A stretch of DNA of 64,000 nt from Escherichia coli (GCF_024502345.1 NZ_JALDNN010000001.1), one strand, 5' to 3'. Positions 1,089 to 34,840 are shown, counted from the first letter of the stretch. Made by a program: numbers and translations. Notes: a model not told the origin generated them from the letters alone.

Positions 1089-1844
1089 ATGATACTCACT
1101 CTCAGGGGCGTTGCGGTTTACTATGCAGATACGGATTTTTTCAGCTGGCGTCGCACGATGCTGTTGCGTTTTCAGAGGATGGAGGCCGCAGAAGAGGTCT
1201 ACCATGAAATAGAGCTTCAGGCTCAGCAGCTGGAGTACGATTACTATTCGTTATGTGTTCGCCACCCGGTACCATTCACGCGACCTAAAGTGGCTTTCTA
1301 CACCAATTACCCTGAGTCGTGGGTTAGTTATTATCAGGCAAAAAATTTTCTCGCAATTGATCCTGTGCTGAACCCTGAAAACTTTAGTCAGGGCCATTTA
1401 ATGTGGAATGATGACTTATTCAGCGAAGCACAGCCATTATGGGAAGCCGCGCACGCACATGGTTTACGCCGCGGTGTCACTCAGTATTTAATGCTGCCAA
1501 ATCGGGCGCTGGGCTTTTTGTCCTTTTCCTGTTGCAGCACGCGCAAAATACCCATTCTTAGTGATGAACTGCAATTAAAAATGCAGTTACTGGTGCGCGA
1601 AAGTCTGATGGCTCTGATGCGCTTAAATGATGAAATAGTGATGACGCCAGAGATGAATTTCAGCAAGCGCGAAAAAGAAATTCTGAAATGGACGGCGGAA
1701 GGGAAGACATCAGCAGAGATAGCGATGATTTTGTCAATCTCTGAGAATACGGTCAATTTCCATCAGAAAAACATGCAGAAAAAAATCAATGCACCAAATA
1801 AGACCCAGGTGGCCTGTTACGCGGCCGCTACTGGCTTAATTTGA
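1089..1844 (+). CDS. sdiA: LuxR-family quorum-sensing regulator SdiA; start codon uncertain (see findings)
   Basis: Long frame with autoinducer-binding N-domain and C-terminal LuxR HTH (SISENTVNFHQKNMQKKI); the expected ATG at 1123 is out of frame with the body. Confidence 0.8.
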   Translation: MILTLRGVAVYYADTDFFSWRRTMLLRFQRMEAAEEVYHEIELQAQQLEYDYYSLCVRHPVPFTRPKVAFYTNYPESWVSYYQAKNFLAIDPVLNPENFSQGHLMWNDDLFSEAQPLWEAAHAHGLRRGVTQYLMLPNRALGFLSFSCCSTRKIPILSDELQLKMQLLVRESLMALMRLNDEIVMTPEMNFSKREKEILKWTAEGKTSAEIAMILSISENTVNFHQKNMQKKINAPNKTQVACYAAATGLI

Positions 1845-1870
1845 TCGCTTTTCTTTCTGCGTGCCAGATG

Positions 1871-1910
1871 CAAAAACCGGCTGAAAGGCACGCTCTCAGC
1901 CGGTTTTATA
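1871..1910. terminator. Bidirectional rho-independent terminator between convergent sdiA and yecF
   Basis: Hairpin aaccggctga...tcagccggtt followed by T-run. Confidence 0.6.
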
Positions 1911-2135
1911 TTACTGACGGTAGGCTTGTTTAATTTGCTTAACCGTTTTGGAAAATACTGCAGCCTGGGTTTCGTCTTCGATCAGCGCAAGCTGTTTTTC
2001 CATCTTTAACATCACGCGGCCCGCGTCAGCTTGTCCCATCGCCTGCAGCATCAGCGTCAGCATCGCTTTCAGGCAGGAGACTTCATTTGCCAGTTCTTGA
2101 TTATTCTCGGCAGTAGAAAAATCAGGCGTACTCAT
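1911..2135 (-). CDS. yecF: Small conserved protein YecF (DUF2594)
   Basis: 74-aa ORF at the conserved position between sdiA and uvrY. Confidence 0.75.
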
Positions 2136-2462
2136 TTATTTTCCTCGTCATGTTGCAATGAAAATTTGCGGTGAAAAATGTTAAGGCGGCGGAGTATACC
2201 ATAAGCTTTGCTAAAAATAGCAGTGGTTGTTTTTTGAGCGTGATATCGGCAGTGCTATAAAATACGTTAATATAATGACCAATAAATATTTTTATCATGA
2301 ATGTTTTTTGCCCGTATTGTTCGGGTTAATTAATGTTACATATTCAGCGGGCTGATTTTCATTTTTGCTGAATAAAGTCAATTTTTGTCACATTTCATCG
2401 CCGGGCTTACTGTGAAACGATCCCGGAAGCCGTTGGTGACGGGCGTGACCATAACTGTGGAC

Positions 2463-2471
2463 AATCGAATT
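2463..2471. repeat. 9-bp target-site duplication (left) of IS903-family insertion
   Basis: aatcgaatt immediately outside the left IR; identical copy at 3529-3537. Confidence 0.85.
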
Positions 2472-3528
2472 GGCTTTGTTGAATAAATCAGATTTCGGGT
2501 AAGTCTCCCCCGTAGCGGGTTGTGTTTTCAGGCAATACGCACGCTTTCAGGCATACCTGCTTTCGTCATTTTGTTCAGCGCTCGTACCAGGGCCATAGCC
2601 TCTGCAACCTGACCATCGTAGTCACGCAGTGTCAGTGAACCCCCGAACAGCTGTTTTACCCGGTACATCGCCGTTTCCGCTATCGAGCGACGGTTGTAAT
2701 CTGTTGTCCATTTCCACCGCGCATTACTCCCGGTCATTCGCTGATTAGCCACTGCACGGTTACGGTCTGCATATTCACCGGGCCAGTAACCCGCACCTTT
2801 TCGGGGAGGGATAAGCGCGCTGATTTTCTTACGCCGCAGTTCATCGTGACATAGCCGGGTATCGTAAGCGCCATCGGCGGCGGCTGACCTGATTTTCCGG
2901 TGGGTTTGCCGGATTAACCCGGGGAAGGCCTCTGAGTCCGTAACGTTGTTCAGCGACAGGTCAGCGCAGATGATTTCATGTGTTTTACTGTCAACGGCGA
3001 GATGCAGCTTACGCCAGATACGGCGGCGTTCCTGGCCATGCTTTTTGACTTTCCACTCGCCTTCACCGAAGACCTTCAGCCCGGTGGAATCAATTACCAG
3101 GTGTGCGATTTCACCCCGGGTGGGCGTTTTGAAACTGACATTAACCGACTTTGCCCGCCTGCTGACACAGCTGTAATCCGGGCAGCGTAGCGGAACGTTC
3201 ATCAGAGAAAAAATGGAATCAATAAAGCCCTGCGCAGCGCGCAGGGTCAGCCTGAATACGCGTTTAATGACCAGCACAGTCGTGATGGCAAGGTCAGAAT
3301 AGCGCTGAGGTCTGCCTCGTGAAGAAGGTGTTGCTGACTCATACCAGGCCTGAATAGCTTCATCATCCAGCCAGAAAGTTATGGAGCCACGGTTGATGAG
3401 GGCTTTATTGTAGGTGGGCCAGTTGGTGATTTTGAACTTTTGCTTTGCCACGGAACGGTCTGCGTTGTCGGGAAGATACGTGATCTGATCCTTCAACTCA
3501 GCAAAAGTTCGATTTATTCAACAAAGCC
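2472..3528 (-). mobile_element. IS903-family (IS5 family) insertion sequence, 1057 bp
   Basis: Terminal inverted repeats ggctttgttgaataaatc (2472-2489) and its reverse complement (3511-3528); single DDE transposase ORF; flanked by perfect 9-bp direct repeats. Confidence 0.9.
2528..3496 (-). CDS. IS903-family DDE transposase
   Basis: 322-aa ORF filling the IS; N-terminal ...KITNWPTYNKALINRGS... typical of the IS903 group. Confidence 0.85.
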   Translation of the reverse strand: MKDQITYLPDNADRSVAKQKFKITNWPTYNKALINRGSITFWLDDEAIQAWYESATPSSRGRPQRYSDLAITTVLVIKRVFRLTLRAAQGFIDSIFSLMNVPLRCPDYSCVSRRAKSVNVSFKTPTRGEIAHLVIDSTGLKVFGEGEWKVKKHGQERRRIWRKLHLAVDSKTHEIICADLSLNNVTDSEAFPGLIRQTHRKIRSAAADGAYDTRLCHDELRRKKISALIPPRKGAGYWPGEYADRNRAVANQRMTGSNARWKWTTDYNRRSIAETAMYRVKQLFGGSLTLRDYDGQVAEAMALVRALNKMTKAGMPESVRIA

Positions 3529-3537
3529 AATCGAATT
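3529..3537. repeat. 9-bp target-site duplication (right) of IS903-family insertion
   Basis: aatcgaatt, identical to 2463-2471. Confidence 0.85.
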
Positions 3538-3659
3538 TACAAAAACGAGAGAAAAATCGAATACCCACCATTTTTAACGTTTCAAAGTTGCAATAAAAAC
3601 CGCTAATATACGAATGACTAACTATCAGTAGCGTTATCCCTATTTCTGGAGATATTCCT

Positions 3660-4316
3660 TTGATCAACGTTCTACTTGTTGATGACCACGAACTGGTGCG
3701 CGCAGGGATACGACGCATTCTGGAAGATATAAAGGGTATAAAAGTCGTCGGTGAGGCATCGTGCGGTGAAGACGCCGTTAAGTGGTGCCGGACAAATGCC
3801 GTTGACGTGGTGCTAATGGACATGAGTATGCCGGGCATTGGCGGTCTTGAGGCGACGCGTAAAATCGCGCGTTCCACAGCTGATGTCAAAATCATCATGC
3901 TTACCGTCCATACAGAAAACCCTTTACCAGCGAAAGTCATGCAGGCCGGTGCTGCGGGCTACCTCAGCAAAGGCGCGGCTCCGCAGGAAGTCGTGAGTGC
4001 GATTCGTTCTGTCTATTCAGGGCAGCGTTACATTGCTTCTGACATCGCTCAACAAATGGCGTTAAGCCAGATCGAACCAGAAAAAACAGAAAGCCCATTT
4101 GCCAGTTTGTCTGAACGTGAATTGCAGATTATGCTGATGATCACCAAGGGCCAGAAGGTCAATGAGATCTCAGAACAGCTCAATCTCAGTCCGAAAACGG
4201 TGAACAGCTACCGCTATCGTATGTTCAGTAAACTAAACATTCATGGCGATGTTGAGCTGACTCACCTGGCAATTCGCCATGGTCTGTGTAATGCGGAGAC
4301 ATTATCAAGTCAGTGA
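3660..4316 (+). CDS. uvrY: Response regulator UvrY (BarA/UvrY two-component system), TTG start
   Basis: 218 aa; receiver domain (LLVDDH...D54 region) plus C-terminal LuxR-type HTH; stop overlaps uvrC start. Confidence 0.9.
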
Positions 4317-6145
4317 GTGATCAGTTTGACGCAAAAGCGTTTTTAAAAACCGTAACCAGCCAGCCAGGCGTTTATCGCATGTACGATGCTGGTGGTACGG
4401 TTATCTATGTCGGCAAAGCGAAAGACCTGAAAAAACGGCTTTCCAGCTATTTCCGTAGCAACCTCGCTTCGCGCAAAACCGAAGCGCTGGTCGCCCAGAT
4501 CCAGCAAATTGATGTAACGGTTACTCACACAGAAACCGAAGCGCTGTTGCTGGAACACAACTACATCAAACTCTATCAGCCGCGTTACAACGTTTTGCTA
4601 CGCGATGATAAATCATATCCTTTTATCTTCCTGAGTGGTGATACCCACCCGCGTCTGGCGATGCATCGTGGTGCGAAGCATGCCAAAGGTGAATATTTCG
4701 GCCCGTTCCCGAATGGCTATGCCGTACGTGAAACACTGGCGCTACTGCAAAAGATATTCCCCATTCGCCAGTGCGAAAATAGTGTTTATCGCAATCGCTC
4801 GCGTCCGTGTCTGCAATATCAGATAGGGCGCTGTCTGGGACCGTGCGTTGAAGGACTGGTGAGTGAAGAAGAATACGCTCAGCAGGTCGAGTATGTGCGC
4901 CTGTTTTTGTCTGGCAAAGATGATCAGGTGCTTACGCAACTCATTAGCCGTATGGAAACTGCCAGCCAGAATCTGGAGTTTGAAGAAGCTGCACGTATTC
5001 GCGACCAAATTCAGGCGGTGCGACGCGTCACCGAAAAACAATTCGTTTCCAATACCGGCGACGACCTCGACGTTATTGGTGTGGCGTTCGATGCGGGCAT
5101 GGCTTGTGTCCACGTATTGTTCATTCGTCAGGGCAAAGTGCTCGGCAGCCGCAGCTATTTCCCGAAAGTGCCTGGCGGTACGGAACTGAGCGAGGTGGTA
5201 GAAACCTTCGTAGGCCAGTTCTATTTACAAGGCAGCCAGATGCGCACCTTACCGGGTGAGATCCTGCTCGATTTTAATCTTAGCGATAAAACGCTGCTCG
5301 CCGATTCCCTTTCAGAACTGGCGGGACGCAAGATTAATGTTCAAACCAAACCTCGCGGCGATAGGGCGCGTTATCTGAAACTCGCGCGCACCAATGCGGC
5401 GACGGCCTTAACCAGCAAACTTTCGCAGCAATCTACCGTTCACCAGCGACTGACCGCGCTTGCCAGCGTGTTGAAATTGCCGGAAGTGAAGCGGATGGAG
5501 TGCTTTGACATCAGCCATACCATGGGCGAACAAACCGTCGCTTCCTGTGTGGTGTTTGATGCTAACGGCCCGCTGCGTGCGGAGTATCGGCGCTATAACA
5601 TTACAGGCATCACGCCGGGCGATGATTATGCGGCGATGAATCAGGTGCTGCGTCGGCGTTATGGTAAAGCCATTGACGACAGTAAGATCCCGGATGTGAT
5701 CCTTATCGACGGCGGCAAAGGCCAGCTTGCGCAGGCGAAAAATGTCTTCGCCGAACTGGATGTCTCATGGGATAAAAATCATCCACTGCTACTTGGCGTT
5801 GCCAAAGGAGCAGATCGTAAGGCTGGGCTGGAAACACTGTTCTTTGAGCCGGAAGGTGAGGGATTCAGTTTGCCGCCAGATTCTCCCGCGCTGCATGTTA
5901 TCCAGCATATTCGCGATGAATCACACGATCACGCGATTGGCGGGCACCGTAAAAAACGGGCGAAGGTCAAAAATACCAGCTCCCTGGAAACCATTGAAGG
6001 CGTCGGGCCAAAACGTCGGCAAATGTTGTTGAAATATATGGGCGGTTTGCAAGGTTTACGTAACGCCAGCGTCGAGGAAATTGCAAAAGTGCCGGGTATT
6101 TCGCAAGGTCTGGCAGAAAAGATCTTCTGGTCGTTGAAACATTGA
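4313..6145 (+). CDS. uvrC: Excinuclease ABC subunit C, GTG start
   Basis: 610 aa; GIY-YIG N-terminal motif (GVYRMYD...YVGKA), C-terminal HhH; overlaps uvrY stop. Confidence 0.92.
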
Positions 6146-6201
6146 TGTCTCTGTAGCAACATAGGGGTAATCTTACTGACAACAGATAGTTACCCGTCAT
6201 T

Positions 6202-6750
6202 ATGCAATTTAATATCCCTACGTTGCTTACACTGTTCCGTGTCATCCTTATCCCATTCTTTGTATTGGTCTTTTATCTGCCTGTCACCTGGTCGCCGTTT
6301 GCCGCCGCGCTCATTTTCTGCGTCGCGGCGGTGACTGACTGGTTCGATGGTTTTCTGGCACGCCGCTGGAACCAGAGTACCCGGTTTGGTGCTTTCCTTG
6401 ACCCTGTCGCAGATAAAGTTCTCGTGGCTATCGCCATGGTGCTGGTAACCGAGCATTATCACAGCTGGTGGGTGACCTTACCGGCAGCAACGATGATCGC
6501 CCGTGAAATTATTATTTCTGCGCTACGCGAATGGATGGCGGAGTTGGGTAAACGCAGTAGCGTGGCTGTCTCCTGGATTGGGAAAGTGAAAACCACTGCC
6601 CAGATGGTGGCGTTGGCATGGCTGCTGTGGCGTCCGAACATTTGGGTTGAGTACGCCGGTATTGCACTTTTCTTTGTGGCTGCGGTACTGACTCTGTGGT
6701 CAATGTTGCAATATTTGAGCGCTGCGCGTGCAGATTTGCTTGATCAGTGA
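6202..6750 (+). CDS. pgsA: CDP-diacylglycerol--glycerol-3-phosphate 3-phosphatidyltransferase
   Basis: 182-aa membrane protein with CDP-alcohol phosphatidyltransferase motif D...G...A...G...D...D ([10 protein letters not shown]). Confidence 0.9.
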
Positions 6751-7117: not shown

Positions 7118-7204
7118 GCCCGGATGGTGGAATCGGTAGACACAAGGGATTTAAAATCCCTCGGCGTTCGCGCTGTGTGGGTTCAAGTCCCACTCCGGGT
7201 ACCA
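7118..7204 (+). tRNA. leuZ: tRNA-Leu (anticodon UAA), long variable arm; 3' half is the integration site of the element
   Basis: 87 nt ending CCA; anticodon loop gatttTAAaatcc; T-stem carries a compensatory U-A pair relative to the displaced copy at 34590-34645. Confidence 0.9.
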
Positions 7205-7276
7205 TGGGAAACATCAGAATAATCAAAGCAATAAGCAGTGTCGTTAAACCACCTCCGGGTGGTTTTTTTGTGCCTG
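7149..7276 (+). repeat. attL: direct repeat covering the 3' 56 nt of tRNA-Leu plus terminator
   Basis: About 128 bp, roughly 95% identical to 34590-34719. Confidence 0.85.
7246..7269 (+). terminator. Rho-independent terminator after leuZ
   Basis: Hairpin accacctccgggtggt followed by T7. Confidence 0.7.
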
Positions 7277-7445
7277 AAATTCATGTCCTGTGCATATCCT
7301 GTGCTCACGGGGTGCGATGAGCTGCAATCTCCAGCCTGGCAATGACGAATCGAACGTGTCGCCTCCAGCATAGAGAACCAGGCCGCTTTGCCTGTTTTCC
7401 GGTACGCTTCCGGGAAGGGGGGCCTGCTGAGCAAGCTGTAATGCT

Positions 7446-8186
7446 CTAGCCACCCTGAGTACAAAGTTGCTTAATTCGTGCAATCACCTCATCTCTGTAC
7501 TTCTGGTGTCCGCGCATAGCCCGTGGATGGGCAATTCTGAAACAGATTGCATTACCTGTTTTGAACTCCCATAGCTTCCCCGGAATGACTGAAGAAGTCT
7601 CATAGCCGCCCAGCTCAGTAAGCACCTGTTTTATGATGTAGTCTGTTCTCCGGGCTCCAGATGCAAAGATGATGAAATCAGGCTCAAGGTGTTTAATTTG
7701 TACCGCCAGCAGCTTCAGCGAGGCTAATATGACTTCCTGCACTTCATTTTGAGGGCGATTGAGAGGGGTCAGTCCGTCGTAATCCCACGCCAGTAGATTG
7801 GCATACACGATTGCCTGGGGAAGAATATTAAGCTCCCGGGCCAGCCTGAAATGATATTGCGTGAAGCGGCTACGTGATTTGAGGTTGGTGGTGCCATCAT
7901 TTTGTACCGGAAGATGATTCCTGTAACGATCTACAGCTTCTTCAACCACCTGCCCGATGGTGACGTCAGGTATAAGTCCCAACACCCGTGATATCGTATT
8001 CTTACCATTCAGCGTATTCCAGCCTGCGGTTTCACGTCCAACCAGCATGATTTTTATCGGTGAATGCCAGTATTCTTCAAACGGCACGGGTAAAAAGACG
8101 CCTGAGTATTTATCTTCATTCAGGTTAAATGACTGGGCGTCAACTTCCTGTAATATCCGTTTGTACGCGTCTAATAGCTTTTCCAT
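7446..8186 (-). CDS. Uracil-DNA glycosylase superfamily protein (UDG-like)
   Basis: 246 aa; KIMLVGRETAG resembles the family-4 UDG motif-A region and FRIAHPRAM resembles motif B (HPS-like). Confidence 0.5.
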   Translation of the reverse strand: MEKLLDAYKRILQEVDAQSFNLNEDKYSGVFLPVPFEEYWHSPIKIMLVGRETAGWNTLNGKNTISRVLGLIPDVTIGQVVEEAVDRYRNHLPVQNDGTTNLKSRSRFTQYHFRLARELNILPQAIVYANLLAWDYDGLTPLNRPQNEVQEVILASLKLLAVQIKHLEPDFIIFASGARRTDYIIKQVLTELGGYETSSVIPGKLWEFKTGNAICFRIAHPRAMRGHQKYRDEVIARIKQLCTQGG

Positions 8187-8266
8187 TCTTCAATCCTGCC
8201 CCGTAATAAAAACACCTTCAGATATATATTATCTCCATGATATCAATCAGATACATGAGGATAAAT

Positions 8267-9484
8267 ATGCAAAAATCCTTCCGATTCACCAATTCATCCA
8301 TCAAAGCCCTTCCGGCAAACACAGATACCCGATCTACAGAGCTTGAGGTATCAGATACCGAGGTCATAGGCCTCAAATGTCTCTCAGGTCGAACGGGTAA
8401 CAAACGTTTCCTCCTGCGCTACACATTCCACGGTACCAAAAAAAGTATCAGTATTGGCAGATTCCCTGAAATCGATGTGGGGACAGCCCGTCAGATAGCT
8501 CGCCGTCATAAGGAGGCGATTGCACTTGGAAATGACCCCAAGGCAGAGCGCGATAATTATCGTGCGATGCCAACGCTTAGTGAGTTTTTTCACCTGACCT
8601 ATGTTCCGTTCATCAAGCGCCATAAAAAGTCCTGGGATAAGGATGTTCAGCGTTTCACGCAATACATTGAACCTCGTCTGGGGAAGATACGTTACTGCGA
8701 TCTCAGGGCCAGAGAGATACAACAGGTGCTGTTTGACATGCTGGAGGGGCGTATTCACGGGCAGCAATATGCGCCGTCTACCTGTAACAGAGCCCTTGCT
8801 ATTCTGAAAACGATGGGGCGTTATGCGTTGCGACAGGATGTGCTGGAAAAGAATGAAGCCGATAAGATCCCTTTACTGAAAGAGAATAATCAGCGGACGC
8901 GCTTTTTTGATGCTGATGAGATCAGGCGCATTCTTGACGCTGCTACCCAATATCCCAACAAAGCTGCCGGGGGATTGATAGCCATGTTGTTGTTAACCGG
9001 TACACGCAAATCAGAAATGCTTAATGTCAGGCATGAACATATCGACCGGGCCAATCGTACTCTGTTCATTCCTTATACAAAAAATGGTCGCAGTCGGACG
9101 GTATATCTAAGCGATGCAGCATTATCGATTATTGATGCTATCCCACGAGTTGGCAGTAATCCGTATCTGTTCGCCATTAAGGATAATGGAAAACCGATAT
9201 CGGAACCCCGATGGGCATATGAAAAAATACTGGCACAGTGCGGTATAGACAAGAATGAAGTCTGTTTTCACACCACACGTCATTCTGTTGCCTCTTTACT
9301 GGTTTCGAGTGGTCAATTCAGCCTGTATGACGTTAAAGCACAACTGGCGCATGCCAGTATTCAAAGTACGGAGCGCTACGCGAAATTGACACCAGAGCGT
9401 ATGCGTCAGACCGGGCAGGGCGTAACTGACCTTCTTTTGAACACCGTTACTGCCGGTAACAATGATGATTTTAGCACCCCTTGA
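8267..9484 (+). CDS. Tyrosine recombinase / integrase (P4-like); alternative upstream ATGs at 8237 and 8255
   Basis: Catalytic signature TGTRKSE (R), HTTRHSVAS (HxxR), ERYAKL (Y); RBS gagga before ATG 8267; adjacent to tRNA att site. Confidence 0.85.
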   Translation: MQKSFRFTNSSIKALPANTDTRSTELEVSDTEVIGLKCLSGRTGNKRFLLRYTFHGTKKSISIGRFPEIDVGTARQIARRHKEAIALGNDPKAERDNYRAMPTLSEFFHLTYVPFIKRHKKSWDKDVQRFTQYIEPRLGKIRYCDLRAREIQQVLFDMLEGRIHGQQYAPSTCNRALAILKTMGRYALRQDVLEKNEADKIPLLKENNQRTRFFDADEIRRILDAATQYPNKAAGGLIAMLLLTGTRKSEMLNVRHEHIDRANRTLFIPYTKNGRSRTVYLSDAALSIIDAIPRVGSNPYLFAIKDNGKPISEPRWAYEKILAQCGIDKNEVCFHTTRHSVASLLVSSGQFSLYDVKAQLAHASIQSTERYAKLTPERMRQTGQGVTDLLLNTVTAGNNDDFSTP

Positions 9485-10847: not shown

Positions 10848-11282
10848 ATGCAAACCCAATATGCCTTAAAACAGGCAGGATTAACTCTGCCTGTTACTAA
10901 AGAATTTCAGCAGCATATTACTACTCTTCTGGCAAATCAGGTTTTACAAAAAATAACTGAGGCAGTGGTTATTAATTTCCGCGATCCGGACTACAGTGCA
11001 GAATCCGGGGGCTTTCATCCCGTTGAAATACGGTTTATCCGTAAGAATAATGAATGGTATTTTGATTATGTCACAGATTTTAGTTATATGGGGCGTGTCT
11101 ACCCTGAGCTGGAAAAAGAAATTGATTTTTGCTGGTCGGGGAATTATGTCTTCCATTATCTGATTGGGGATATTTCACTGGCAGCAGAGAGGAATGAACT
11201 CTGGTCTCTGTGGGAGCGTAATTTTATGGAGTATCTCTCTATGGGGATTTACCGGGTAACGGTAACTGTGGAAAGTTGTTGA
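10848..11282 (+). CDS. Hypothetical protein (element cargo)
   Basis: 144-aa ORF. Confidence 0.45.
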   Translation: MQTQYALKQAGLTLPVTKEFQQHITTLLANQVLQKITEAVVINFRDPDYSAESGGFHPVEIRFIRKNNEWYFDYVTDFSYMGRVYPELEKEIDFCWSGNYVFHYLIGDISLAAERNELWSLWERNFMEYLSMGIYRVTVTVESC

Positions 11283-11583
11283 CCCGTTATGAACAGGAAG
11301 AAAGCGGGCGGCTTTGTAATCTACAGCATGTGGTGTGCATCACAGCATGGAGATGATGTCTCTTTTTCCTGGCTGTTCGCATAAACAAGTGCAGACACGG
11401 GGGATCTCAGATCCCTCGTGATTTTTGCCCCCTATGGTGCATTCTTCTGTAGCAGGGTGATAACGGTTAATCCATTACCCCAACGACAGTATTACACCGG
11501 TAATAAATGTTCATGAATACAGTTAGTTATGTGGGTTTTGAGGTGGGCTATGTCATCGTTGACGATAACTGAAGGTTTTACAG

Positions 11584-11811
11584 ATGTATAAAACTCGCGG
11601 TGAAAGGATCGCAGAAAGGCTGTGCTGGATATTACTTCAACTGTATACCGGTAATACGGTATCGGTTAATGATATATGTCAGCGTTTCGCGGTCAGTCGC
11701 CGAACCGGACAGCGTGATTTGTTGAGAGTTGAAACTGTAACGGAAACTATTTCACCTGGAAGGGTAAGGCTGGCAAATTTGATAAGGGAACGAGTTAGAC
11801 GAAATTTTTAA
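11584..11811 (+). CDS. Small HTH protein resembling the N-terminus of YafY/WYL-type regulators
   Basis: 75 aa; ...NTVSVNDICQRFAVSRRTGQRDL... HTH, parallel to the N-terminus of the 12773-13675 product. Confidence 0.4.
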   Translation: MYKTRGERIAERLCWILLQLYTGNTVSVNDICQRFAVSRRTGQRDLLRVETVTETISPGRVRLANLIRERVRRNF

Positions 11812-11892
11812 TCGAATCCATATCAATTCTATAAAATATGAAACTTAACGGGAGTAAATATACACTCCCGTTATAATGCAACCTTTTTTTAA

Positions 11893-12711
11893 CTACTCAA
11901 ATGATATTAATTTAGGTGCGACAGTGTTTTTATGACATGTTAAATTCGCAAGATCAATAATATCATGAAACAATTTTATGTCGTCGTCAGTGAGCTCTAC
12001 GTCTGGATCAGCTAAATCGGCACAGGTAACATTTAACCAGTGTGTTAATGAATCAATCCTGTTTGAAGTAATATATTCAGTGTGACCAATATCCCACTTC
12101 CAGTTGATCACCCGAGCAGGTCTGAATCTCACCTCCCGAACCCCAATTGGCGTTACTGACTCTACGAGAGGGTATATCGTGTTAAGTACTTTATCATGTT
12201 CACTGTAGATATTTAAATGCCCCATTTTTGAACCGTAAGCCATTTTCATTATGTTCTCTGTATAACTTGTTATTGGGGTGGCTCCGGCCATAGAGATTGT
12301 TAAGAGAATATTATCATTTTTAATATAGGGTAATGTATTGTTTATTAATCGAGTCCCTAAAGAATGACCCATTATGATCACATTACGCTTTTCTTTAACG
12401 TATATCTCGTTTATTACGTGTGCTAATTTTTCTCTGTTATTAACTGCTGCTTTCGTTGCATTATACCAGGCCTGACGCGCTTTAAATGGAATGGAGATTG
12501 ATGACAATAAAGGAGATGTTCTCAGGGGGAAGAGAGTATATAACCCCCACTTGTTCGCTATGTCAGAACTTAATATGGATAGTAGATTTGCCGATTCCCA
12601 TTTATAGTATCTGACATCAAGGCCACACCCTGCTTTAATTCGGTTAAACCATGATATATCATTTTCGGTCAGAAACCCTGATACAACAAGAAGAACCGGG
12701 CATTTTTTCAT
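11893..12711 (-). CDS. Alpha/beta-hydrolase-fold protein (GxSxG nucleophile elbow)
   Basis: 272 aa; IIMGHSLGTR serine-hydrolase motif. Confidence 0.5.
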   Translation of the reverse strand: MKKCPVLLVVSGFLTENDISWFNRIKAGCGLDVRYYKWESANLLSILSSDIANKWGLYTLFPLRTSPLLSSISIPFKARQAWYNATKAAVNNREKLAHVINEIYVKEKRNVIIMGHSLGTRLINNTLPYIKNDNILLTISMAGATPITSYTENIMKMAYGSKMGHLNIYSEHDKVLNTIYPLVESVTPIGVREVRFRPARVINWKWDIGHTEYITSNRIDSLTHWLNVTCADLADPDVELTDDDIKLFHDIIDLANLTCHKNTVAPKLISFE

Positions 12712-12772
12712 GGTAACTCCATTTTTTAGCTTACAAAAATAGCACTCAATGAAAATTATATTATCCGTGTCA

Positions 12773-13675
12773 TTACGGGGCGTTACTTGGCTGGGTGTAA
12801 CGTTTCAGTGCGGATTGTATATCTTCAGCAAGTTGTTGACGGATTGAGGCCGGTTGTATTACTTCGACATCCGGTATCCAGTATTTCATTAAAGGCATTA
12901 TCTGATCTGTGTGTGTTACACGTGATATCACCAGTAAATCGCCAGACCGGGAAGTATGAATTATTTCCTGTCCTGGCAATAGATGACGGTGGGTAAACCA
13001 CGGAGCAACATGTGCGGAAACTGAAATAAGAACTTCGATAAGGTCTTCGCTATACCAGATACCATCTGTCTTTTCTATTTTTTCATTAATTTCGGGGATT
13101 ATCCTGAAAGAGATATTACTCATGCAAACGTCTTTGACAGATGAGATAACAAAGCTTTTTAATGTACTGTCATGGGCGGCAGCGAGATACCACAATCCGT
13201 TGTCATTAACCAGCCTGTATGGCTCAACAGCCCGAAACTCTTTATCTTTGTAATTAAAATTTACTTTCTTCTGTGACAGGATGGCATCGGATAATACATT
13301 CAGAATTGACATGAATGATCCGCAGTTTTCGTATGGACGTTGTTTTATCAGAAACGGGTTGTTTTTCGTGTTACCTAACAAAATACTCAGTAGTCTGTCA
13401 TCCCAGCGAGGGAACAGCCCTTCAATACCCAGGATGCGCGTGAAATGACGTAAATCAGCATTGCTGCGTTGACCGAGAACACCGTCAGACAGGCGATAGC
13501 GACCATTTTGTCGAATCAGATTAAGATAGGACAGGCGCTGAGTAAGATCACGACGGATAGTTTTTTCGCAAACGTTAAATTCCTCAGATAACTCCCGGAC
13601 GGCTAGTGACTCACCATTGTTCAGGCGAGTTAATATCAATCCGAGTCGATATCCAAGTTTATCGTGCTTACCCAT
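12773..13675 (-). CDS. HTH + WYL-domain-type transcriptional regulator (YafY-like)
   Basis: 300 aa; N-terminal DeoR-like HTH ([21 protein letters not shown]), central region consistent with a WYL domain. Confidence 0.5.
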
Positions 13676-13724
13676 TCGTTTATCCGGTTAATGCCAGCGA
13701 AGAGGATATTTTCAGCAAAGTAAC

Positions 13725-13835
13725 GGACAGGATGAGTCCACTTTTACTGTGACGGAGAAAAAAATTAACTCATTAATTATCAATATATTAAAACATTGCT
13801 GGAATCATCGAATAACATGTGGACTCATCCTGTCC
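13725..13835. promoter_or_regulatory. Perfect 17-bp inverted repeat pair (candidate operator) upstream of the WYL/HTH regulator gene
   Basis: ggacaggatgagtccac (13725-13741) and gtggactcatcctgtcc (13819-13835), 77-bp AT-rich spacer. Confidence 0.5.
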
Positions 13836-14054
13836 ATGTGTATTTTTACGTTCAGGGTGATAATTATTATCCTGACCTGTACATGACATGTTTTTGCTGC
13901 ATATTTGACCATGCACTTTTGCCATCAAGTCGGAGAGGCAGGGGGGAACGTAAGATCCGAAGGTTAGAGAGGTTATCAGCAATTACAATGATGATTAATA
14001 TTTTCATAATATCGGAGAACATCATATTAGTTGAAATAACATAAAGGTGGTTCT

Positions 14055-14381
14055 ATGTATTTACATATCAGAAAGTATCAACTCGTAAATGCGAGATGGC
14101 GTGATGTCATTGATCTGACAGATTATGAAGAAACAATCAGGCAGGTTGTCGGTACATTATTTGGAAATGATTTTATTGAGGTCAGCGTTGAAACAAATTG
14201 TTTTACTCTGACAGTAAACAGTACAAGCAGTAAAATACCACACGGCATACTGGTGAATATGGGGAAAAGGCTGGCGGCTAATCTCCAGAGTATCACCTGT
14301 CATGCCATGCGGATCTATCATGTAAATGGCCATCCTGACGCGCGGCAGTTATTTCACTGTTTTGATGCCGATTGCCTGTGA
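14055..14381 (+). CDS. Hypothetical protein (element cargo)
   Basis: 108-aa ORF with RBS aaaggtgg upstream. Confidence 0.4.
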   Translation: MYLHIRKYQLVNARWRDVIDLTDYEETIRQVVGTLFGNDFIEVSVETNCFTLTVNSTSSKIPHGILVNMGKRLAANLQSITCHAMRIYHVNGHPDARQLFHCFDADCL

Positions 14382-14385
14382 TTAA

Positions 14386-14415
14386 GCCCCCAACTTCTGT
14401 TAAAGGAGTTGGGGG
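14386..14415. terminator. Bidirectional hairpin between convergent genes
   Basis: cccccaact...agttggggg perfect stem. Confidence 0.5.
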
Positions 14416-14429
14416 AGATTTAACGGTTA

Positions 14430-17030
14430 TCAGACTGGAAGACAGAATGTCGGATATTTACGGGCTATGATATCCATCAGTGACTTCATTCGCGGTGTTA
14501 CAGAACTAAATTTCATTTGGGGTATTTTTGCTCTTACCGCATTTTTTACATCAGTCACCGTTACTGAATAGCCTTCTGACGTCAGCCATTCAGCAACCTC
14601 TTTACAGGAATAACTTTTTTTATCTTTCAGCATCAGCCCCCATTGGCACTGAGTCAGCGCCCGGAGAAATAGTCTGACTAAAATATCATCACTACGTTTG
14701 CTTCCGACTTTTAGTTTCATATCAGAAAACACCGTCCGGCAATAGAGAAAATCACACCAGTCATCCCAGTCAGCCAGGGTCTTCAGTGTATGCGTTTGCC
14801 GCCAGTCGTCGAAAAGGGAGCGCTGCTGCAGAGCCTCTTCCATATTATCCCATGGGCGGGAAAACATCAGTAAATGCCCTTCATTCATGGCGGGCTGTAC
14901 GGGCTGGCGTTTGAAATCGAATTCCAGATTAAGACGGATATCCTGTTCCCGGGATACCAGATCGCTTTCCGACAGCCACATCTCACGCGTTGATATCAAC
15001 GTACTTCGGGATAAAGTCTGACCGGGTAAACGATTAAGGTAAAGATCTACCATATAGTCGTTATAGTCACTGCGTGGAATATCGGCAGGAGGTTTGACGC
15101 CAGCCCTGGCATGAACAACAGGTTTTCCCTGAATAGCTCTATAGGTTAACTGCCCCCGGGTTTTCATGGCGATAAGCTGGCTGACTTCATGCTTACATGT
15201 CAACATTGATGAACCCGGATCAACAATATCGCACAGCGACTGGAAGCGGGAAGACAGTGGACCGCTCATGTTTATCTTGTTAAGTGGGCAATTTGTCAAA
15301 AAGCCATCGGTTGTGACGCTGACAACCGATGAATCAGAAGGCAAAGCATTCATGAGTTCCCCGGCAACGGCGCGGATAAATCCCGTTACATGCGCAGCAA
15401 AGAATGGCTGAGTAACCGATGATGGTGGGAGGGATCTGTTTAATCCACGGGCAGTATCAAAGGCGGTTTTGGCGCGAAGGCCCTGAGCAAGTTTGCCATA
15501 AAGCGAGTTGCCAATTTCTTTCCAGAATTTCTCCTCCAGAGAACCTTTAATATGGCGATTACGGTTCTCACGGACCTGTTGAACAAAGGGAAGAAACACC
15601 GATGTTGATTCGCTGTTATGTGGGGAGGTGTCACAGATCCAGGGGACGATGATCCCATTATGGATCGTCATCTCTGCCCCGAGCGACAGAGCAAGTTCGA
15701 TTTCAGGTGCCGTTGCCCATGATTCGCCACTTAATGGAAAGAATAACCCATATTGATCGGTCCGAACCGGCAGGCTGGGATAGGGAACTGATTCCGGGAA
15801 CCGAAATGTGACAAGCGCAAATCCCATTACATGCCCACAGTAATCGTCCGGATTTTTACTGAGGCGGATGTTCCCGTAATCGGGTGTGAGGATATCTAAT
15901 AGCCCGGTGGTATACGCTCCAGCCAGATCGTAGTCATACCAGTGATCAGACGGTGTAACCCCCATCATAAAACACTCATTGCGTCCGCCGTGGTAACAGT
16001 TGATCGGGAACGTTTCAAACAACTCTCTTGAAGGAACACTGGCGGGGTTTTTAATCGTCCGGAATGCCTGTTTCTCCGTGAGCCAGAGTTCACGGGTTTT
16101 AATGTGTGTCCCAAGGCAGACTTCAGGAGACATATTGTTTTCTTTAAGTGTTTTGGTGAACCGTGAAACTGCCATCGCCCCGATGGTGGCGGGGACACGA
16201 TCAATCATCAGCTCCCGGGCGCAAAAATTGCGAACCTGTAAAGCATAACGAACCGCAATCTCGGCATCCCGCAGAGCATAGGCTTCAAACCCTGCTCTGT
16301 CGCCCAGAAGATATTCACGCATATTGGTTATGGAATAAGGTGCAGGAATGGTGAGTTTGGGAAGACCCAGTAATTCACCACATTCAGCCAGACCCATACC
16401 CCCGGGAGTGATAAGCAGTGTATCGATGAAAGCTACGTTACTGCAACGCGGAGGGGAAGTTCGTTTGTCAAACATTATCTGTTCAGTCTTTACGCGACGT
16501 TCCTGCTGTTCATCAAAATCGATACCGTAACGATTTTTGAAGCTGCTGACAGTACCGCGTATTCCTTTCAGAAGAATTTTGTAGTCTGACCAGAAATTGG
16601 CAAAGGAGGCGATATCCGCACGAATGAAATGCGCATATATATTAATAATACCGGGCCATTTTGTAATCACACCCGTTTCAAGAAGCGGTGTAATCGTTTG
16701 ACAGAGAAATTCCTTAAAAGACAGCCGGGATTTTTTCTGTGAGTCAGGTGGATAGATAATGTTCGATATACCTGTATTATCGGGTAAGATAACATAACTC
16801 TGATATGACAGAATATCATTCTGTCGTGTTTCAGGGTTGAAAACATATTCGGTATCAAAACCGATATGGAGTGTCAGGTCACTTGAAATAACAGATACTT
16901 TTTTTGATGCAGGTGGTATCACAGGATAATCATCAAGCGTTTTAGGTCTTTTACGATTGAGCGCTGGCTCTGAAGTCACGGACTGATACCCCGAGGCGGC
17001 AGCGAGGATGTCCTGCAAATTATTGCTCAT
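14430..17030 (-). CDS. Family-B DNA polymerase with 3'-5' exonuclease domain (piPolB-like); alternative start at 17093
   Basis: Exo I FDTE, Exo III YALRD, motif A DYDLAGAYTT, motif B KEIGNSLYGK, motif C VTTDGF, downstream KTRG, all in canonical order; RBS ggag before ATG 17030. Confidence 0.85.
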   Translation of the reverse strand: MSNNLQDILAAASGYQSVTSEPALNRKRPKTLDDYPVIPPASKKVSVISSDLTLHIGFDTEYVFNPETRQNDILSYQSYVILPDNTGISNIIYPPDSQKKSRLSFKEFLCQTITPLLETGVITKWPGIINIYAHFIRADIASFANFWSDYKILLKGIRGTVSSFKNRYGIDFDEQQERRVKTEQIMFDKRTSPPRCSNVAFIDTLLITPGGMGLAECGELLGLPKLTIPAPYSITNMREYLLGDRAGFEAYALRDAEIAVRYALQVRNFCARELMIDRVPATIGAMAVSRFTKTLKENNMSPEVCLGTHIKTRELWLTEKQAFRTIKNPASVPSRELFETFPINCYHGGRNECFMMGVTPSDHWYDYDLAGAYTTGLLDILTPDYGNIRLSKNPDDYCGHVMGFALVTFRFPESVPYPSLPVRTDQYGLFFPLSGESWATAPEIELALSLGAEMTIHNGIIVPWICDTSPHNSESTSVFLPFVQQVRENRNRHIKGSLEEKFWKEIGNSLYGKLAQGLRAKTAFDTARGLNRSLPPSSVTQPFFAAHVTGFIRAVAGELMNALPSDSSVVSVTTDGFLTNCPLNKINMSGPLSSRFQSLCDIVDPGSSMLTCKHEVSQLIAMKTRGQLTYRAIQGKPVVHARAGVKPPADIPRSDYNDYMVDLYLNRLPGQTLSRSTLISTREMWLSESDLVSREQDIRLNLEFDFKRQPVQPAMNEGHLLMFSRPWDNMEEALQQRSLFDDWRQTHTLKTLADWDDWCDFLYCRTVFSDMKLKVGSKRSDDILVRLFLRALTQCQWGLMLKDKKSYSCKEVAEWLTSEGYSVTVTDVKNAVRAKIPQMKFSSVTPRMKSLMDIIARKYPTFCLPV

Positions 17031-17076
17031 AGTTAACTCCGAAAAAATGCCGGGAGCTGTGTCCCGGCATAAAGAA

Positions 17077-17715
17077 TCAGGATTTAATAACATTTACTAC
17101 AGATTTGAAAATATCGGTTTTGTGTGATTCATCATCTACATGGATAAAGGAAACGAGTTTCCTGCCTGCTTTAATCAGGATACCGCGTTGCGTCTTTTCC
17201 ACAGACGGGGTAACGTGTGCAGATAACAGACAATGTTCATGTAAATGAAGAAACTTTTTTGAGGCGTAGCCGCCATGTAATCGGGCTTGAATGTCAAGAT
17301 ACATATCATCAAGAGAACCGGGTTCTCCTGATTCACTCAATACCGGATAACCCTTCTTATCAAAGAGGTTAAGGATAGATTTACTATCATGTTCGAACAG
17401 GGTAACACCGTAAATGTATTTCATTCGAAAGGTGAGGGAATCGGTGGTGTAGACCTCCTCCTGACGATTGAAATTTTTGAGACGCCTGGCTAATTCATTA
17501 AAAACAGCACGAGCAGTAGCCGTGTCCTGCAGGGTGTAGGTATAAAGTACGAAGCCATCTGTGCCGATGAGCTTTACTAAGTTGTCCATAATCGTGATAG
17601 CGAGAACTAATGCAAAGGACAGATATTTTTCATCGTTGTCTACAGCTGTGTTTGCTGCTTCAGGAAGAATGTTCAGTGCATTATTAGCATTATTTGCTGT
17701 GTTCTTAGTAACCAT
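17077..17715 (-). CDS. Hypothetical protein between the excisionase and PolB genes
   Basis: 212-aa ORF overlapping the xis stop by 11 nt; no recognisable motif. Confidence 0.5.
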   Translation of the reverse strand: MVTKNTANNANNALNILPEAANTAVDNDEKYLSFALVLAITIMDNLVKLIGTDGFVLYTYTLQDTATARAVFNELARRLKNFNRQEEVYTTDSLTFRMKYIYGVTLFEHDSKSILNLFDKKGYPVLSESGEPGSLDDMYLDIQARLHGGYASKKFLHLHEHCLLSAHVTPSVEKTQRGILIKAGRKLVSFIHVDDESHKTDIFKSVVNVIKS

Positions 17716-22505: not shown

Positions 22506-24029
22506 ATGAACGACAAAATCAGTCAGGACACGATCAACAAAGCCCTGTGGGCCGCGTGTGATACGTTCCGTGGCACCATCAGTGCTGATACCTATAAAGA
22601 CTTTATCCTTACCATGCTATTCCTTAAGTACATTTCGGATGTCTGGCAGGATCACTACGACGAATATAAAGTGCAATATGGTGATGAGCCGGAACTGATT
22701 GAAGCGATGATGGCGAACGAGCGCTTCGTGTTGCCGAAAAGCGCCAGTTTCTATGCGTTGTACGAGCGACGTCATGAGCCGGGCAACGGTGAGCGTATCG
22801 ATCAGGCGCTGCATGCGATTGAAGAAGCCAACGGCACCAAACTGAAAGATGCCGGGAAAAGTGTCTTCCAGGATATTTCGTTTAACACTGACCGTCTGGG
22901 CGAAGAAAAACAGAAGAACACCATCCTGCGTCAGTTGCTGGAAGACTTTGCCGGTGAAGATCTTAACCTGAAGCCAAGCCGTGTCGGTACGCTGGACGTT
23001 ATCGGTAATGCTTACGAATATCTGATCAAAAACTTTGCTGCCAGCGGTGGGCAGAAAGCCGGGGAATTCTATACCCCACCGGAAGTTTCGGATCTCATCG
23101 CTGAACTGCTTGATCCTCAACCCGGTGATACAATCTGCGACCCGGCCTGTGGTTCCGGTTCGTTGCTAATGAAGTGCGGGCGTAAAATTGTCTCAGGACA
23201 TGATAGCCGCAACTATGCGTTGTTCGGTCAGGAAGCGATTGGCTCCACGTGGTCGCTGGCGAAAATGAACATGTTCCTGCACGGCGAAGATAACCACAAA
23301 ATCGAGTGGGGCGATACCATTCGTAACCCGAAGTTGTTGGATAAAAACGGCGACCTGATGCTGTTTGATATCGTGACCGCAAACCCACCGTTCAGCCTGG
23401 ATAAGTGGGGCCATGACGAGGCCGAGAATGATAAGTTTGGGCGTTTCCGTCGCGGTGTACCGCCGAAGACTAAAGGGGATTACGCCTTTATCTCGCATAT
23501 GATCGAAACCCTGAAACCGGGAACGGGTCGTATGGGCGTAGTGGTGCCGCACGGTGTGCTGTTCCGTGGCTCCAGCGAAGGCAAAATTCGTCAGAAGCTG
23601 ATTGATGAAAACCTACTCGATGCGGTGATTGGCCTGCCTGAAAAACTGTTCTACGGTACGGGTATTCCTGCTGCAATTCTGATTTTTAAAAAGCAGAAAG
23701 TGGATGACAAGGTGCTGTTTATCGACGCCAGCCGTGAATTTAAGGCAGGTAAAAACCAGAACCAGCTCAGCGCAGAAAACATCGAGAAAATCGTCAAGAC
23801 CTACCGTGATGGCGATAGCGTCGAGAAATATGCCTACCTTGCCAGCCTGAAGGAGATTCAGGACAACGATTACAACCTCAATATTCCGCGCTATGTCGAT
23901 ACCTTTGAAGAAGAAGAAGATATCGATTTACTTGCCGTTCGTGCTGAGCGGGAGGAATTGAAAGCGGAACTGGCGAAATTGGAAACGCAGATGGCGGGTT
24001 ATCTGGAGGAGCTGGGTTATGGTGCCTAA
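22506..24029 (+). CDS. hsdM: Type I restriction-modification N6-adenine DNA methyltransferase subunit
   Basis: 507 aa; SAM-binding DPACGSGSLL and catalytic NPPF (VTANPPFSL). Confidence 0.9.
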   Translation: MNDKISQDTINKALWAACDTFRGTISADTYKDFILTMLFLKYISDVWQDHYDEYKVQYGDEPELIEAMMANERFVLPKSASFYALYERRHEPGNGERIDQALHAIEEANGTKLKDAGKSVFQDISFNTDRLGEEKQKNTILRQLLEDFAGEDLNLKPSRVGTLDVIGNAYEYLIKNFAASGGQKAGEFYTPPEVSDLIAELLDPQPGDTICDPACGSGSLLMKCGRKIVSGHDSRNYALFGQEAIGSTWSLAKMNMFLHGEDNHKIEWGDTIRNPKLLDKNGDLMLFDIVTANPPFSLDKWGHDEAENDKFGRFRRGVPPKTKGDYAFISHMIETLKPGTGRMGVVVPHGVLFRGSSEGKIRQKLIDENLLDAVIGLPEKLFYGTGIPAAILIFKKQKVDDKVLFIDASREFKAGKNQNQLSAENIEKIVKTYRDGDSVEKYAYLASLKEIQDNDYNLNIPRYVDTFEEEEDIDLLAVRAEREELKAELAKLETQMAGYLEELGYGA

Positions 24030-25946: not shown

Positions 25947-25995
25947 TGAATCTTCATGTGACCAGTAGCGAGTAGCGCCAGAAAGAAAAGGATTA

Positions 25996-30035: not shown

Positions 30036-30093
30036 CTTATCAATATGAGTTCTTAAGAGTTTGGTCAGTCTCGTTAATGCAGGGAGTATAATA

Positions 30094-31932: not shown

Positions 31933-31990
31933 CAAAGTTGGGGTGTTAATTAATGTGTAATGGCATCATGATTTTTAAAAGGAGGTTGAA

Positions 31991-34589: not shown

Positions 34590-34719
34590 ATTTAAAATCC
34601 CTCGGCGTTCGCGCTGTGCGGGTTCAAGTCCCGCTCCGGGTACCATGGGAAAGATAAGAATAAAATCAAAGCAATAAGCAGTGTCGTGAAACCACCTTCG
34701 GGTGGTTTTTTTGTGCCTG
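34590..34719 (+). repeat. attR: displaced 3' half of tRNA-Leu plus terminator (direct repeat of 7149-7276)
   Basis: Contains tRNA 3' 56 nt ending CCA at 34645, with no 5' half upstream; terminator hairpin at 34691-34712. Confidence 0.85.
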
Positions 34720-34840
34720 CAACTTGTCGTTACACCCTCCTTAATTTTTAATCACCGGCAAAGCCACTCAAAAAGTATCTCTGATACGGACCGGCATGTA
34801 AGATAGGTGCTGGCGAGTTGAGATCCACAAGGAAAAACGT

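Follow-up and report, generated by a model that had tools for sequence, protein, structure and literature searches.

Predicted operator boxes and a predicted promoter without a -35 element upstream of the WYL-domain regulator gene of an Escherichia coli pipolin

The DNA considered here is a stretch of 64,000 nucleotides from Escherichia coli (GCF_024502345.1 NZ_JALDNN010000001.1), referred to below as the window, and the locus under study occupies its positions 11,584 to 13,835, where the gene for a 300-residue WYL-domain regulator is flanked on one side by a serine hydrolase gene and on the other side by a pair of perfectly complementary 17-mers (Table 1). The locus is housed in a 27.4-kb pipolin located at tRNA-Leu after uvrC-pgsA and bounded by 131-bp direct repeats, which set the exact limits of the element in the window. 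The element was recognized as a pipolin because it combines a family-B polymerase (piPolB) and two tyrosine recombinases with the tRNA-Leu site and the direct repeats; it also encodes a type I restriction system. Based on the analyses described below, the two 17-mers are likely an operator-box pair for the adjacent regulator, a protein in which a winged helix-turn-helix (wHTH) is followed by WYL and WCX domains.

Table 1. Features of the regulator locus and of the surrounding pipolin, in window coordinates
Feature	Position	Strand	Basis or remark
tRNA-Leu	7118-7204		
attL, left direct repeat (3' part of tRNA-Leu and flank)	7149-7279	+	95% identical to 34590-34722
orf75, helix-turn-helix (HTH)-only protein, 75 aa, conserved pipolin core gene	11584-11811	+	convergent with hydrolase gene; Pfam HTH_11 6.7e-4, HTH_DeoR 4e-3
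Hairpin, likely terminator of the WYL-hydrolase operon	11846-11873		between convergent orf75 and hydrolase genes; minus-strand terminator-like site, 11-pair stem
Lipase-like alpha/beta serine hydrolase, DUF726-related, 272 aa; WYL-operon cargo in E. coli and Citrobacter	11893-12711	-	Pfam, catalytic triad, Foldseek
wHTH-WYL-WCX regulator, 300 aa; pipolin core "WYL" gene	12773-13675	-	Pfam, profile search, Foldseek
Predicted -10 hexamer GAAAAT	13708-13713	-	12 nt past GTC of proximal box; invariant TGAWAAT in nine upstream regions
Proximal arm with predicted operator box	13725-13741, core 13726-13738		repeat search, cross-species conservation
IHF-consensus-like site TATCAATATATTA close to the spacer midpoint (hypothesis)	13778-13790	+	perfect match to WATCAANNNNTTR
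Distal arm with predicted operator box	13819-13835, core 13822-13834		96 bp centre-to-centre from proximal box
Candidate -10 TACGTT facing orf108	13847-13852	+	12 nt after distal box; read from sequence
orf108, protein without assigned function, divergent from regulator	14055-14381	+	RefSeq-annotated; restricted to E. coli/Citrobacter element type
piPolB, primer-independent family-B DNA polymerase, pipolin hallmark	14430-17093	-	RefSeq name "DNA polymerase type-B family protein"; synteny kept in relatives
attR, right direct repeat of the pipolin	34590-34722	+	repeat pair

A first-pass annotation of the window had described a perfect 17-bp inverted-repeat pair, 77 bp apart, upstream of the regulator, and the repeat search confirmed both the arms and their coordinates. 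The arms (GGACAGGATGAGTCCAC and GTGGACTCATCCTGTCC) are 17 nt each and 100% complementary, with 77 nt between them, and they lie within the 379-bp gap that separates the regulator gene from orf108. Across the 64-kb window no other perfect inverted repeat has arms of 15 nt or more and lies within 300 nt, and when up to three mismatches were allowed the 17-mer matched just the two arm sites in the window in comparison to 0.11 sites expected; further copies of the 17-mer or of the boxes it holds were sought across the window and none was found. We estimate at about 1e-3 the chance that 64 kb would contain, at any place, a perfect inverted repeat of 17 nt within 300 nt, and given this estimate, the uniqueness of the repeat and the low expected number of sites, the repeat is thus not a chance product. 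Either arm includes a 15-bp box of the form GGACA-N5-AGTCC, with the core GAC-N7-GTC.

To see how the boxes compare among relatives, we used 65 loci encoding relatives of the regulator (individual loci are designated L001, L002 and so on), which were retrieved by a genome scan with eight sequences. Nine Enterobacterales upstream regions, whose regulators are 65-98% identical, contained two islands of conservation in intergenic DNA that is otherwise hard to align, the first being the distal box and the second the proximal box followed by an invariant TGAWAAT, and the two boxes were consistently in inverted orientation. Among E. coli strains the boxes are invariant while the spacer carries an indel and substitutions, and in Limnobaculum (L007) TGAGTCC has become TAAGTCC in both boxes. 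Farther away, CGACA-N5-TGTCG was found upstream in an Aeromonas pipolin and a Gallibacterium homologue (~32% identity), where it is placed some 61 and 75 nt ahead of the start codon; this is the core of the consensus ATACGACAGTTACTGTCGTAT of DriD, a WYL activator of Caulobacter crescentus, and has the same form as the CGWCA-N5-TGWCG site of DdaA, a WYL activator of DNA-damage and anti-phage genes in Moraxellaceae. The Campylobacterota homologues (25-36% identity) had no upstream GAC-N7-GTC box or common palindrome and no pipolin genes nearby, and the operator assignment is therefore restricted to the gammaproteobacterial branch. The earlier proposal that the repeat is a candidate operator is thus supported by a GAC-N7-GTC box in each arm, of the kind bound by DriD and DdaA, and by phylogenetic footprints in diverged relatives.

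The regulator itself matched Pfam HTH_DeoR (5.6e-8, residues 10-61), WYL (2.5e-10, residues 124-183) and WCX (1.7e-9, residues 212-290), so that its initial description as a WYL/HTH regulator holds, with a WCX domain in addition. Its domains are those of wHTH-WYL-WCX transcription factors of the YafY/COG2378 type, and one genome has it under the RefSeq name "YafY family protein". The WYL motif G-L-W-Y-L-A (W162, Y163, L164) is invariant in 16 homologues. A profile built from these 16 homologues and compared with PDB sequences found PafBC, the actinobacterial WYL activator that works by "sigma adaptation", at 7.6e-11 and DriD at 3e-9, while BrxR and CapW, the WYL repressors of defence islands, gave no match in this profile search even at E<=10; the PDB search with the single regulator sequence gave no match. 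Foldseek comparison of the AlphaFold2 (AF2) model of the regulator ranked DriD (2e-12) and PafBC (4e-10) ahead of BrxR (1.5e-7) and CapW (6.5e-7). In the region where a three-helix-bundle linker was sought, which in the activator subgroup contacts RNA polymerase, the model has helices at residues 72-82, 94-99 and 118-133, with a predicted local distance difference test score (pLDDT) below 50 for residues 83-115. The regulator is thus closer in both sequence and fold to DriD and PafBC than to BrxR and CapW. In addition, an RWHVR motif in place of WYL marks the repressor subgroup of the family (PMC11662680), and this motif is absent from the regulator, which has GLWYL instead. With respect to the ligand, alignment by hidden Markov model (HMM) paired five of the ten DriD contacts to single-stranded DNA (ssDNA) with counterparts in the regulator (Y168/Y142, R176/K145, Y192/Y163, R204/K173 and Y240/Y208, DriD residue first); the DriD contacts S172, K202, R207 and R288 have no counterpart, and DriD R178 is ambiguous since it aligns to F147, which stands beside R148. 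The PHROGs matches of the regulator, and likewise those of the hydrolase, were families of unknown function only.

The proximal box stands in a fixed relation to a predicted promoter of the WYL operon. In all ten variants compared, the layout is TGTCCn-N10-GAWAAT, that is, 12 nt and then GAAAAT or GATAAT, where the N10 segment is fixed in length and variable in sequence. The -35 position reads CTCATC, which is not a -35 element, and transcription is predicted to start near 13701 on the minus strand, giving a 25-nt leader. A simple sigma-70 scan reported no promoter between the regulator gene and the boxes because the -35 element is absent, a blank which fits a promoter without a -35 element and is no evidence for one. 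PafBC-dependent promoters have the consensus tGTCgg(N10)tA(N3)T and no -35 element (PMC8635444), and the geometry TGTCCn(N10)GAWAAT equals that consensus. For DriD, the cryo-EM paper reports boxes lying across the -35 position, with a constant distance to the -10, in promoters lacking a -35 (PMC13004042), and from the promoter sequences in the Methods of that paper we read a hexamer of the A2/T6 type 11-12 nt after the DriD box. The proximal box therefore fills the place of the absent -35 at a fixed distance from the predicted -10, which is a trait of the activator subgroup, and it ends 12 nt upstream of that -10, unlike the operators of the repressor subgroup: those of CapW extend over the -10, and those of BrxR are placed after it, ahead of the gene. 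Taken together, the promoter geometry as read from the sequence and the protein point to the activator class of DriD and PafBC and not to the defence-island repressor class.

Comparison with the individual systems brings out both likenesses and differences. DriD (PDB 8tp8, 9pfq) is the best structural match and shares the order wHTH, helical linker, WYL and WCX; its site, ATACGAC(N7)GTCGTAT, has the same GAC-N7-GTC core, its boxes lie over the -35 of promoters without a -35 element and one is found in its own intergenic region, and the key ssDNA contacts (two Tyr, two basic and one aromatic residue) are kept in the regulator, although half of the contacts are not. The two proteins are only about 15% identical, however, and DriD is a chromosomal master regulator of the DNA-damage response, whereas the regulator is borne by a mobile element; unlike in DriD, two inverted boxes are set 96 bp apart with no others in the window, and the outer bases of the box are GGACA/AGTCC here in comparison to CGACA/TGTCG in DriD. 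PafBC is the best profile match and has a canonical WYL motif along with the same promoter geometry, but it acts as a heterodimer or fusion on a single half-site, whereas the regulator is a single 300-residue protein, presumably a homodimer, facing a full palindromic box. DdaA has a site of the same 5-5-5 layout and links DNA damage to defence genes; it governs a genome-wide regulon, in contrast to boxes confined to the local operon here, and the likeness noted is one of motif. CapW and BrxR resemble the regulator in domain architecture, in fold and in their residence on mobile defence islands, and CapW is moreover a sensor of ssDNA; they differ from it in the RWHVR motif, in an operator over or downstream of the -10, and in the lack of any sequence-level match at E<=10.

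Our preferred interpretation, to which we give a probability of roughly 55%, is that the gene encodes an ssDNA-responsive WYL regulator that activates its own operon through a promoter of the PafBC/DriD type. According to this model, ssDNA arising from DNA damage, phage infection or the element's own replication would bind the WYL domain, the ssDNA-bound regulator (presumably a dimer) would then bind the boxes, and the bound regulator would activate its own operon from the promoter lacking a -35, the output being an exchangeable cargo, here a putatively cytoplasmic lipase-like Ser-Asp-His hydrolase. Box binding, ssDNA as the ligand, activation and the role of the hydrolase are all steps that we infer. 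Several points weigh against this interpretation. An activator of its own gene would require a source of basal expression; only half of the ssDNA contacts of DriD are conserved; the regulator model is of moderate quality (pLDDT 75.6, predicted template modelling score (pTM) 0.45), with an unreliable linker; the 11-12 nt distance for DriD is our own reading and is not a figure stated in the paper; the hydrolase has no match to a known defence family; and the regulator-hydrolase module is dispensable, since it has been lost or interrupted in a number of E. coli elements as described below. Two further points, the defence neighbours of relatives and the position of the box, also bear on the alternative that we consider next.

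That alternative uses the same boxes and the same regulator but assigns them to a mechanism like that of CapW and BrxR, in which the ligand-free protein would repress its own operon and the divergent gene and ssDNA would release it. The wHTH-WYL-WCX architecture and the fold similarity to BrxR and CapW given above are consistent with a repressor, the element is a defence island, and relatives of the regulator adjoin defence systems in the way known for the BrxR/CapW family (a divergent CBASS in L007 and PDC-S06 in L005). Moreover, the proximal box covers the -35/spacer region, where a bound protein could equally exclude RNA polymerase and so cause repression. On the other hand, the regulator carries GLWYL and no RWHVR, its box stops 12 nt upstream of the predicted -10, whereas CapW sites cover the -10 and BrxR sites are downstream of it, there is no -35 for a repressor to occlude (CTCATC), the profile finds PafBC and DriD and not BrxR or CapW, and both the box sequence and the spacing between box and hexamer match activators. 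We thus regard repression as possible, though somewhat unlikely. Either way, by activation or by de-repression alike, the cargo would be induced by ssDNA.

The two arms could instead pair with each other, either in RNA, where the stem-loop would be an attenuator, a terminator or a site of processing, or in DNA, where a hairpin or cruciform would mark a replication origin adjacent to piPolB. In favour of pairing, the arms are perfectly complementary along all 17 nt, an RNA fold of -42.2 kcal/mol is predicted (z=-6.1 for the minus strand and z=-3.7 for the plus strand), the spacer, which has 74% A+T, is situated 600 bp from piPolB, and the distal arm alone scores as a terminator-like hairpin on the plus strand. 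The relatives, however, show that the distal arm has degenerated in Cedecea, Yersinia and Mangrovibacter (L005 and L010, both with GTAC, and L019) while the proximal arm and the -10 hexamer stayed intact, and that differences between the arms in L004 and L007 fall on central bases and are uncompensated, and these changes therefore fit recognition by protein and not pairing of arm with arm. Both arms lie upstream of the predicted start and would thus not be part of the operon mRNA, each arm alone is a palindromic box of the kind bound by the WYL family, and no Rfam match was found in 11200-14500. A loop of 77 nt is also unfavourable for cruciform extrusion. The stem-loop that had been offered earlier as the alternative to an operator is accordingly not supported, and we consider arm pairing in any form very improbable. 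Hardly credible at all is the idea that the repeat is a functionless relic of a local duplication or inversion, for although perfect arm identity in E. coli could mean a recent event and the module is lost in many strains, the same inverted boxes occur in genera whose regulators are just 65-72% identical and whose spacers are unalignable, and the boxes stay constant among E. coli strains while the spacer varies.

The operator reading being preferred, the second box and the distance between the two boxes call for comment. The centre-to-centre distance is 96 bp in the window, Citrobacter, Limnobaculum and Mangrovibacter, 95 bp in two E. coli strains and the variant L068, 85 bp in the Buttiauxella group, and 83 bp in Cedecea and Yersinia; all of these distances, which represent few independent values, are within about 0.15 turn of eight or nine helical turns. 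This suggests that the boxes would be bound on the same face of the DNA, about nine helical turns apart in the window. The IHF-like site in the spacer has a perfect consensus match of a kind that 1.9% of spacer shuffles also hold; in L068 the match is again perfect but of another sequence (AATCAATGGATTA), with offset and orientation unchanged, L007 and L019 have a match with one mismatch at the same place, and the short-spacer lineages have none. The distal box is probably an auxiliary site, hypothetically acting through cooperative binding or looping. It was also observed that the distal box together with its flanks (13815-13841, ACATGTGGAC...GTCCATGTGT followed by ATTTTT) scores as a plus-strand terminator-like hairpin, with no plus-strand gene upstream of it.

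The distal box also faces orf108. The TACGTT flank that might provide a -10 hexamer is invariant in E. coli and Citrobacter, and the same +12 geometry is absent in L004, L005, L007 and also in L068, which does have orf108. Because the geometry is missing in these other lineages, we regard a service of the distal box to a divergent orf108 promoter in E. coli as a weak possibility. The orf108 protein has no Pfam match and its gene is absent in L004-L009; the copy in L068 is 83% identical, with 28 synonymous and 18 non-synonymous codon differences (15/7/34 by codon position). An 11-mer, CAGGGTGATAA, occurs at 11453-11463 upstream of orf75 and again at 13853-13863 in the orf108 leader, where the second copy falls within an imperfect palindrome (13852-13875), and GGGTGATAAC is also kept upstream of orf75 in L004, L006 and L068. 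These elements may be a shared -10 region, or a site of another regulator such as orf75 itself.

The gene downstream of the regulator had been described as a GHSLG serine hydrolase, and rightly so. Ser117 (in GHSLG), Asp173 and His210 are invariant across 18 hydrolase homologues with 25-90% identity, and the AF2 model (pLDDT 82, pTM 0.83) has a lipase-like alpha/beta hydrolase fold whose Foldseek matches were A. fulgidus lipase (8.7e-5), LipA and dienelactone hydrolase. Pfam matches were partial (DUF726 at 1.5e-6, model positions 191-309 of 343, and LCAT at 2.6e-5), RefSeq uses the name "DUF726 domain-containing", and the closest solved sequences were B. subtilis lipase A (1e-5) and related lipases. 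No signal peptide was found; residues 49-71 form a hydrophobic insertion of low confidence, and the C-terminal tail is acidic. The family is rare, with 78 matches among 1.84 billion representatives in an exhaustive search, and a word-index search with the hydrolase returned close E. coli relatives only. Searches of PADLOC and NCBIfam assigned neither the hydrolase nor orf108 nor the orphan genes nearby to a family, and orf75 had a weak HTH match only. The minimal lipases such as B. subtilis LipA and the DUF726/DUF900 hydrolases have the same GxSxG elbow, Ser-Asp-His triad and small alpha/beta fold, while identity to the solved lipases is just 14-18%. An archaeal alpha/beta hydrolase named cinquedea, which is annotated with DUF726 and whose homologues are mostly DUF900 or DUF726, has been described in a preprint as a bactericidal phospholipase. 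By analogy, it is plausible that the hydrolase may act as a membrane-damaging effector.

The hydrolase gene follows the regulator gene after a gap of 61 nt in which no terminator-like site was found. E. coli and Citrobacter share this gene order. In Intestinirhabdus, Buttiauxella, Enterobacter and Limnobaculum, by comparison, the hydrolase is replaced by a gene for a protein of 146-154 aa that overlaps the regulator gene and is followed by an MMR_HSR1 GTPase gene, and in Cedecea the small gene alone stands behind the regulator. Since the gene behind the regulator is variable while orf75 and the remaining core are conserved beyond it, this position makes up a small cargo slot; likewise, two distant hydrolase homologues lie on other islands without a WYL neighbour, and the hydrolase and the regulator are therefore not a fixed pair. 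The hydrolase, as judged from this gene order, is to be read as exchangeable cargo and not as a fixed partner. The alternative cargo was located at 7887-9207 in L004, 7486-8846 in L007 and 7890-8339 in L005, where the start of the 146-154-aa protein, which has no Pfam match, overlaps the regulator stop. The GTPase of L004 and L007 is a 299-aa MMR_HSR1 protein with weak similarity to LeoA/LeoBC, and two small secreted-looking proteins are encoded on the strand opposite to the alternative cargo.

On the far side of the hydrolase, orf75 had been called an HTH-only paralog of the regulator. It is a real conserved gene under purifying selection, but its similarity to the regulator is weak (27% identical to the regulator N-terminus, E=6e-5). 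The gene is present in all Enterobacterales relatives examined, with 43-99% identity, and between the window and L004 there are 36 synonymous in comparison to 17 non-synonymous codon differences (15/11/46 by codon position). It is missing from the RefSeq feature table, but the gene calls of L068 and L069 include it, with 76 aa. No WYL box was found in its upstream region.

Repressors of the CapW/BrxR subgroup are encoded beside an anti-phage system under their control; the neighbours of the regulator in the window are the hydrolase and orf108. On the other side of the regulator, the gene beyond the boxes is piPolB with its terminator in the Buttiauxella group, orf108 and then piPolB in E. coli, a divergent type II CBASS in Limnobaculum, and PDC-S06 in Cedecea. 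In Limnobaculum eriocheiris (L007) the full divergent type II CBASS occupies 1828-6199 (cyclase 3e-145, E1-E2 6e-224, and a 2TM effector), with no piPolB within 7 kb, and is placed as in CapW loci. In Cedecea (L005), 1980-6691 upstream of the WYL gene holds an 800-aa PDC-S06 candidate defence ATPase (E=0) together with a 503-aa protein built from tandem repeats, each some 20 residues long.

The window is part of an E. coli chromosome. The 3-kb regulator region is present in 318 of 5426 complete genomes, and the insertion site uvrC-pgsA-tRNA-Gly/Cys/Leu is the same in a 99.6%-identical E. coli locus. According to the annotation of that locus, the cargo half of the pipolin (22506-33118) encodes the M, S and R subunits of a type I restriction-modification system, along with a YecA/YgfB-like gene and an M48 peptidase. 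The synteny of the WYL gene with DUF2787, orphan genes and IntSXT was kept across L001-L009, L019 and L020 by tblastn. A WYL protein, DUF2787, IntSXT and orphan genes belong to the conserved core of Gammaproteobacteria pipolins as described in the searchable text of Mateo-Caceres and Redrejo-Rodriguez (NAR 2024, PMC11551731), and the "WYL domain-containing protein" of that text is the present regulator gene, which has piPolB on one side and the DUF2787, orphan and IntSXT genes on the other. The searchable text of that paper names the WYL gene only as a core marker; neither there nor in the text of the 2020 E. coli pipolin paper did we find an operator, a promoter or the DUF726 hydrolase mentioned, and we found nothing on a cargo slot behind the regulator or an orf75-like gene in the searchable text of PMC11551731.

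The losses of the module referred to above are of two kinds. An IS1-associated deletion in about 96 E. coli genomes takes away the regulator and the two boxes together with the 5' half of the hydrolase gene, and this loss of the module looks either recurrent or clonally spread; in E. coli ET846 (L067), for example, IS1 replaces this segment at 7846-8992 and a 135-aa remnant of the hydrolase stays. In the E. coli pipolin variant of L068 and L069 (5032-5936), a frameshift near codon 145 splits the regulator. The N-terminal part of this regulator is 90% identical to the window protein in comparison to only 66% for its C-terminal part, which suggests that it is of recombinant origin. The hydrolase of this variant is 67% identical.

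A much broader version of the preferred activator reading would have the pipolin carry a self-contained, ssDNA-triggered switch in which a hybrid promoter of PafBC/DriD style, used by E. coli sigma-70, drives an exchangeable effector slot. The regulator and the hydrolase would then form an undescribed two-gene inducible module for defence or abortive infection, or a sensor of replication driven by piPolB, and the boxes and the IHF-like site would loop to give switch-like induction. We hold this version to be doubtful, with a small chance of being correct.

In general, the analysis indicates that the regulator is a new, mobile-element-borne member of a known WYL class, with an operator and promoter architecture that we did not find described. 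In the literature searched, the WYL gene of pipolins has been only a phylogenetic marker; the analysis supplies a specific candidate operator, and it predicts both a promoter and a signal (ssDNA), which makes regulation in pipolins directly testable. If the activator reading fails, the locus would be just another case of an autoregulated WYL regulator carried by a defence island. If it is true, promoters of the PafBC/DriD type, in which a box takes the place of the -35 and which we found described only in Actinobacteria, Caulobacter and Moraxellaceae, would reach a mobile element of E. coli, and the regulator would mark a small cargo slot of candidate inducible effectors, including a rare lipase-like hydrolase.

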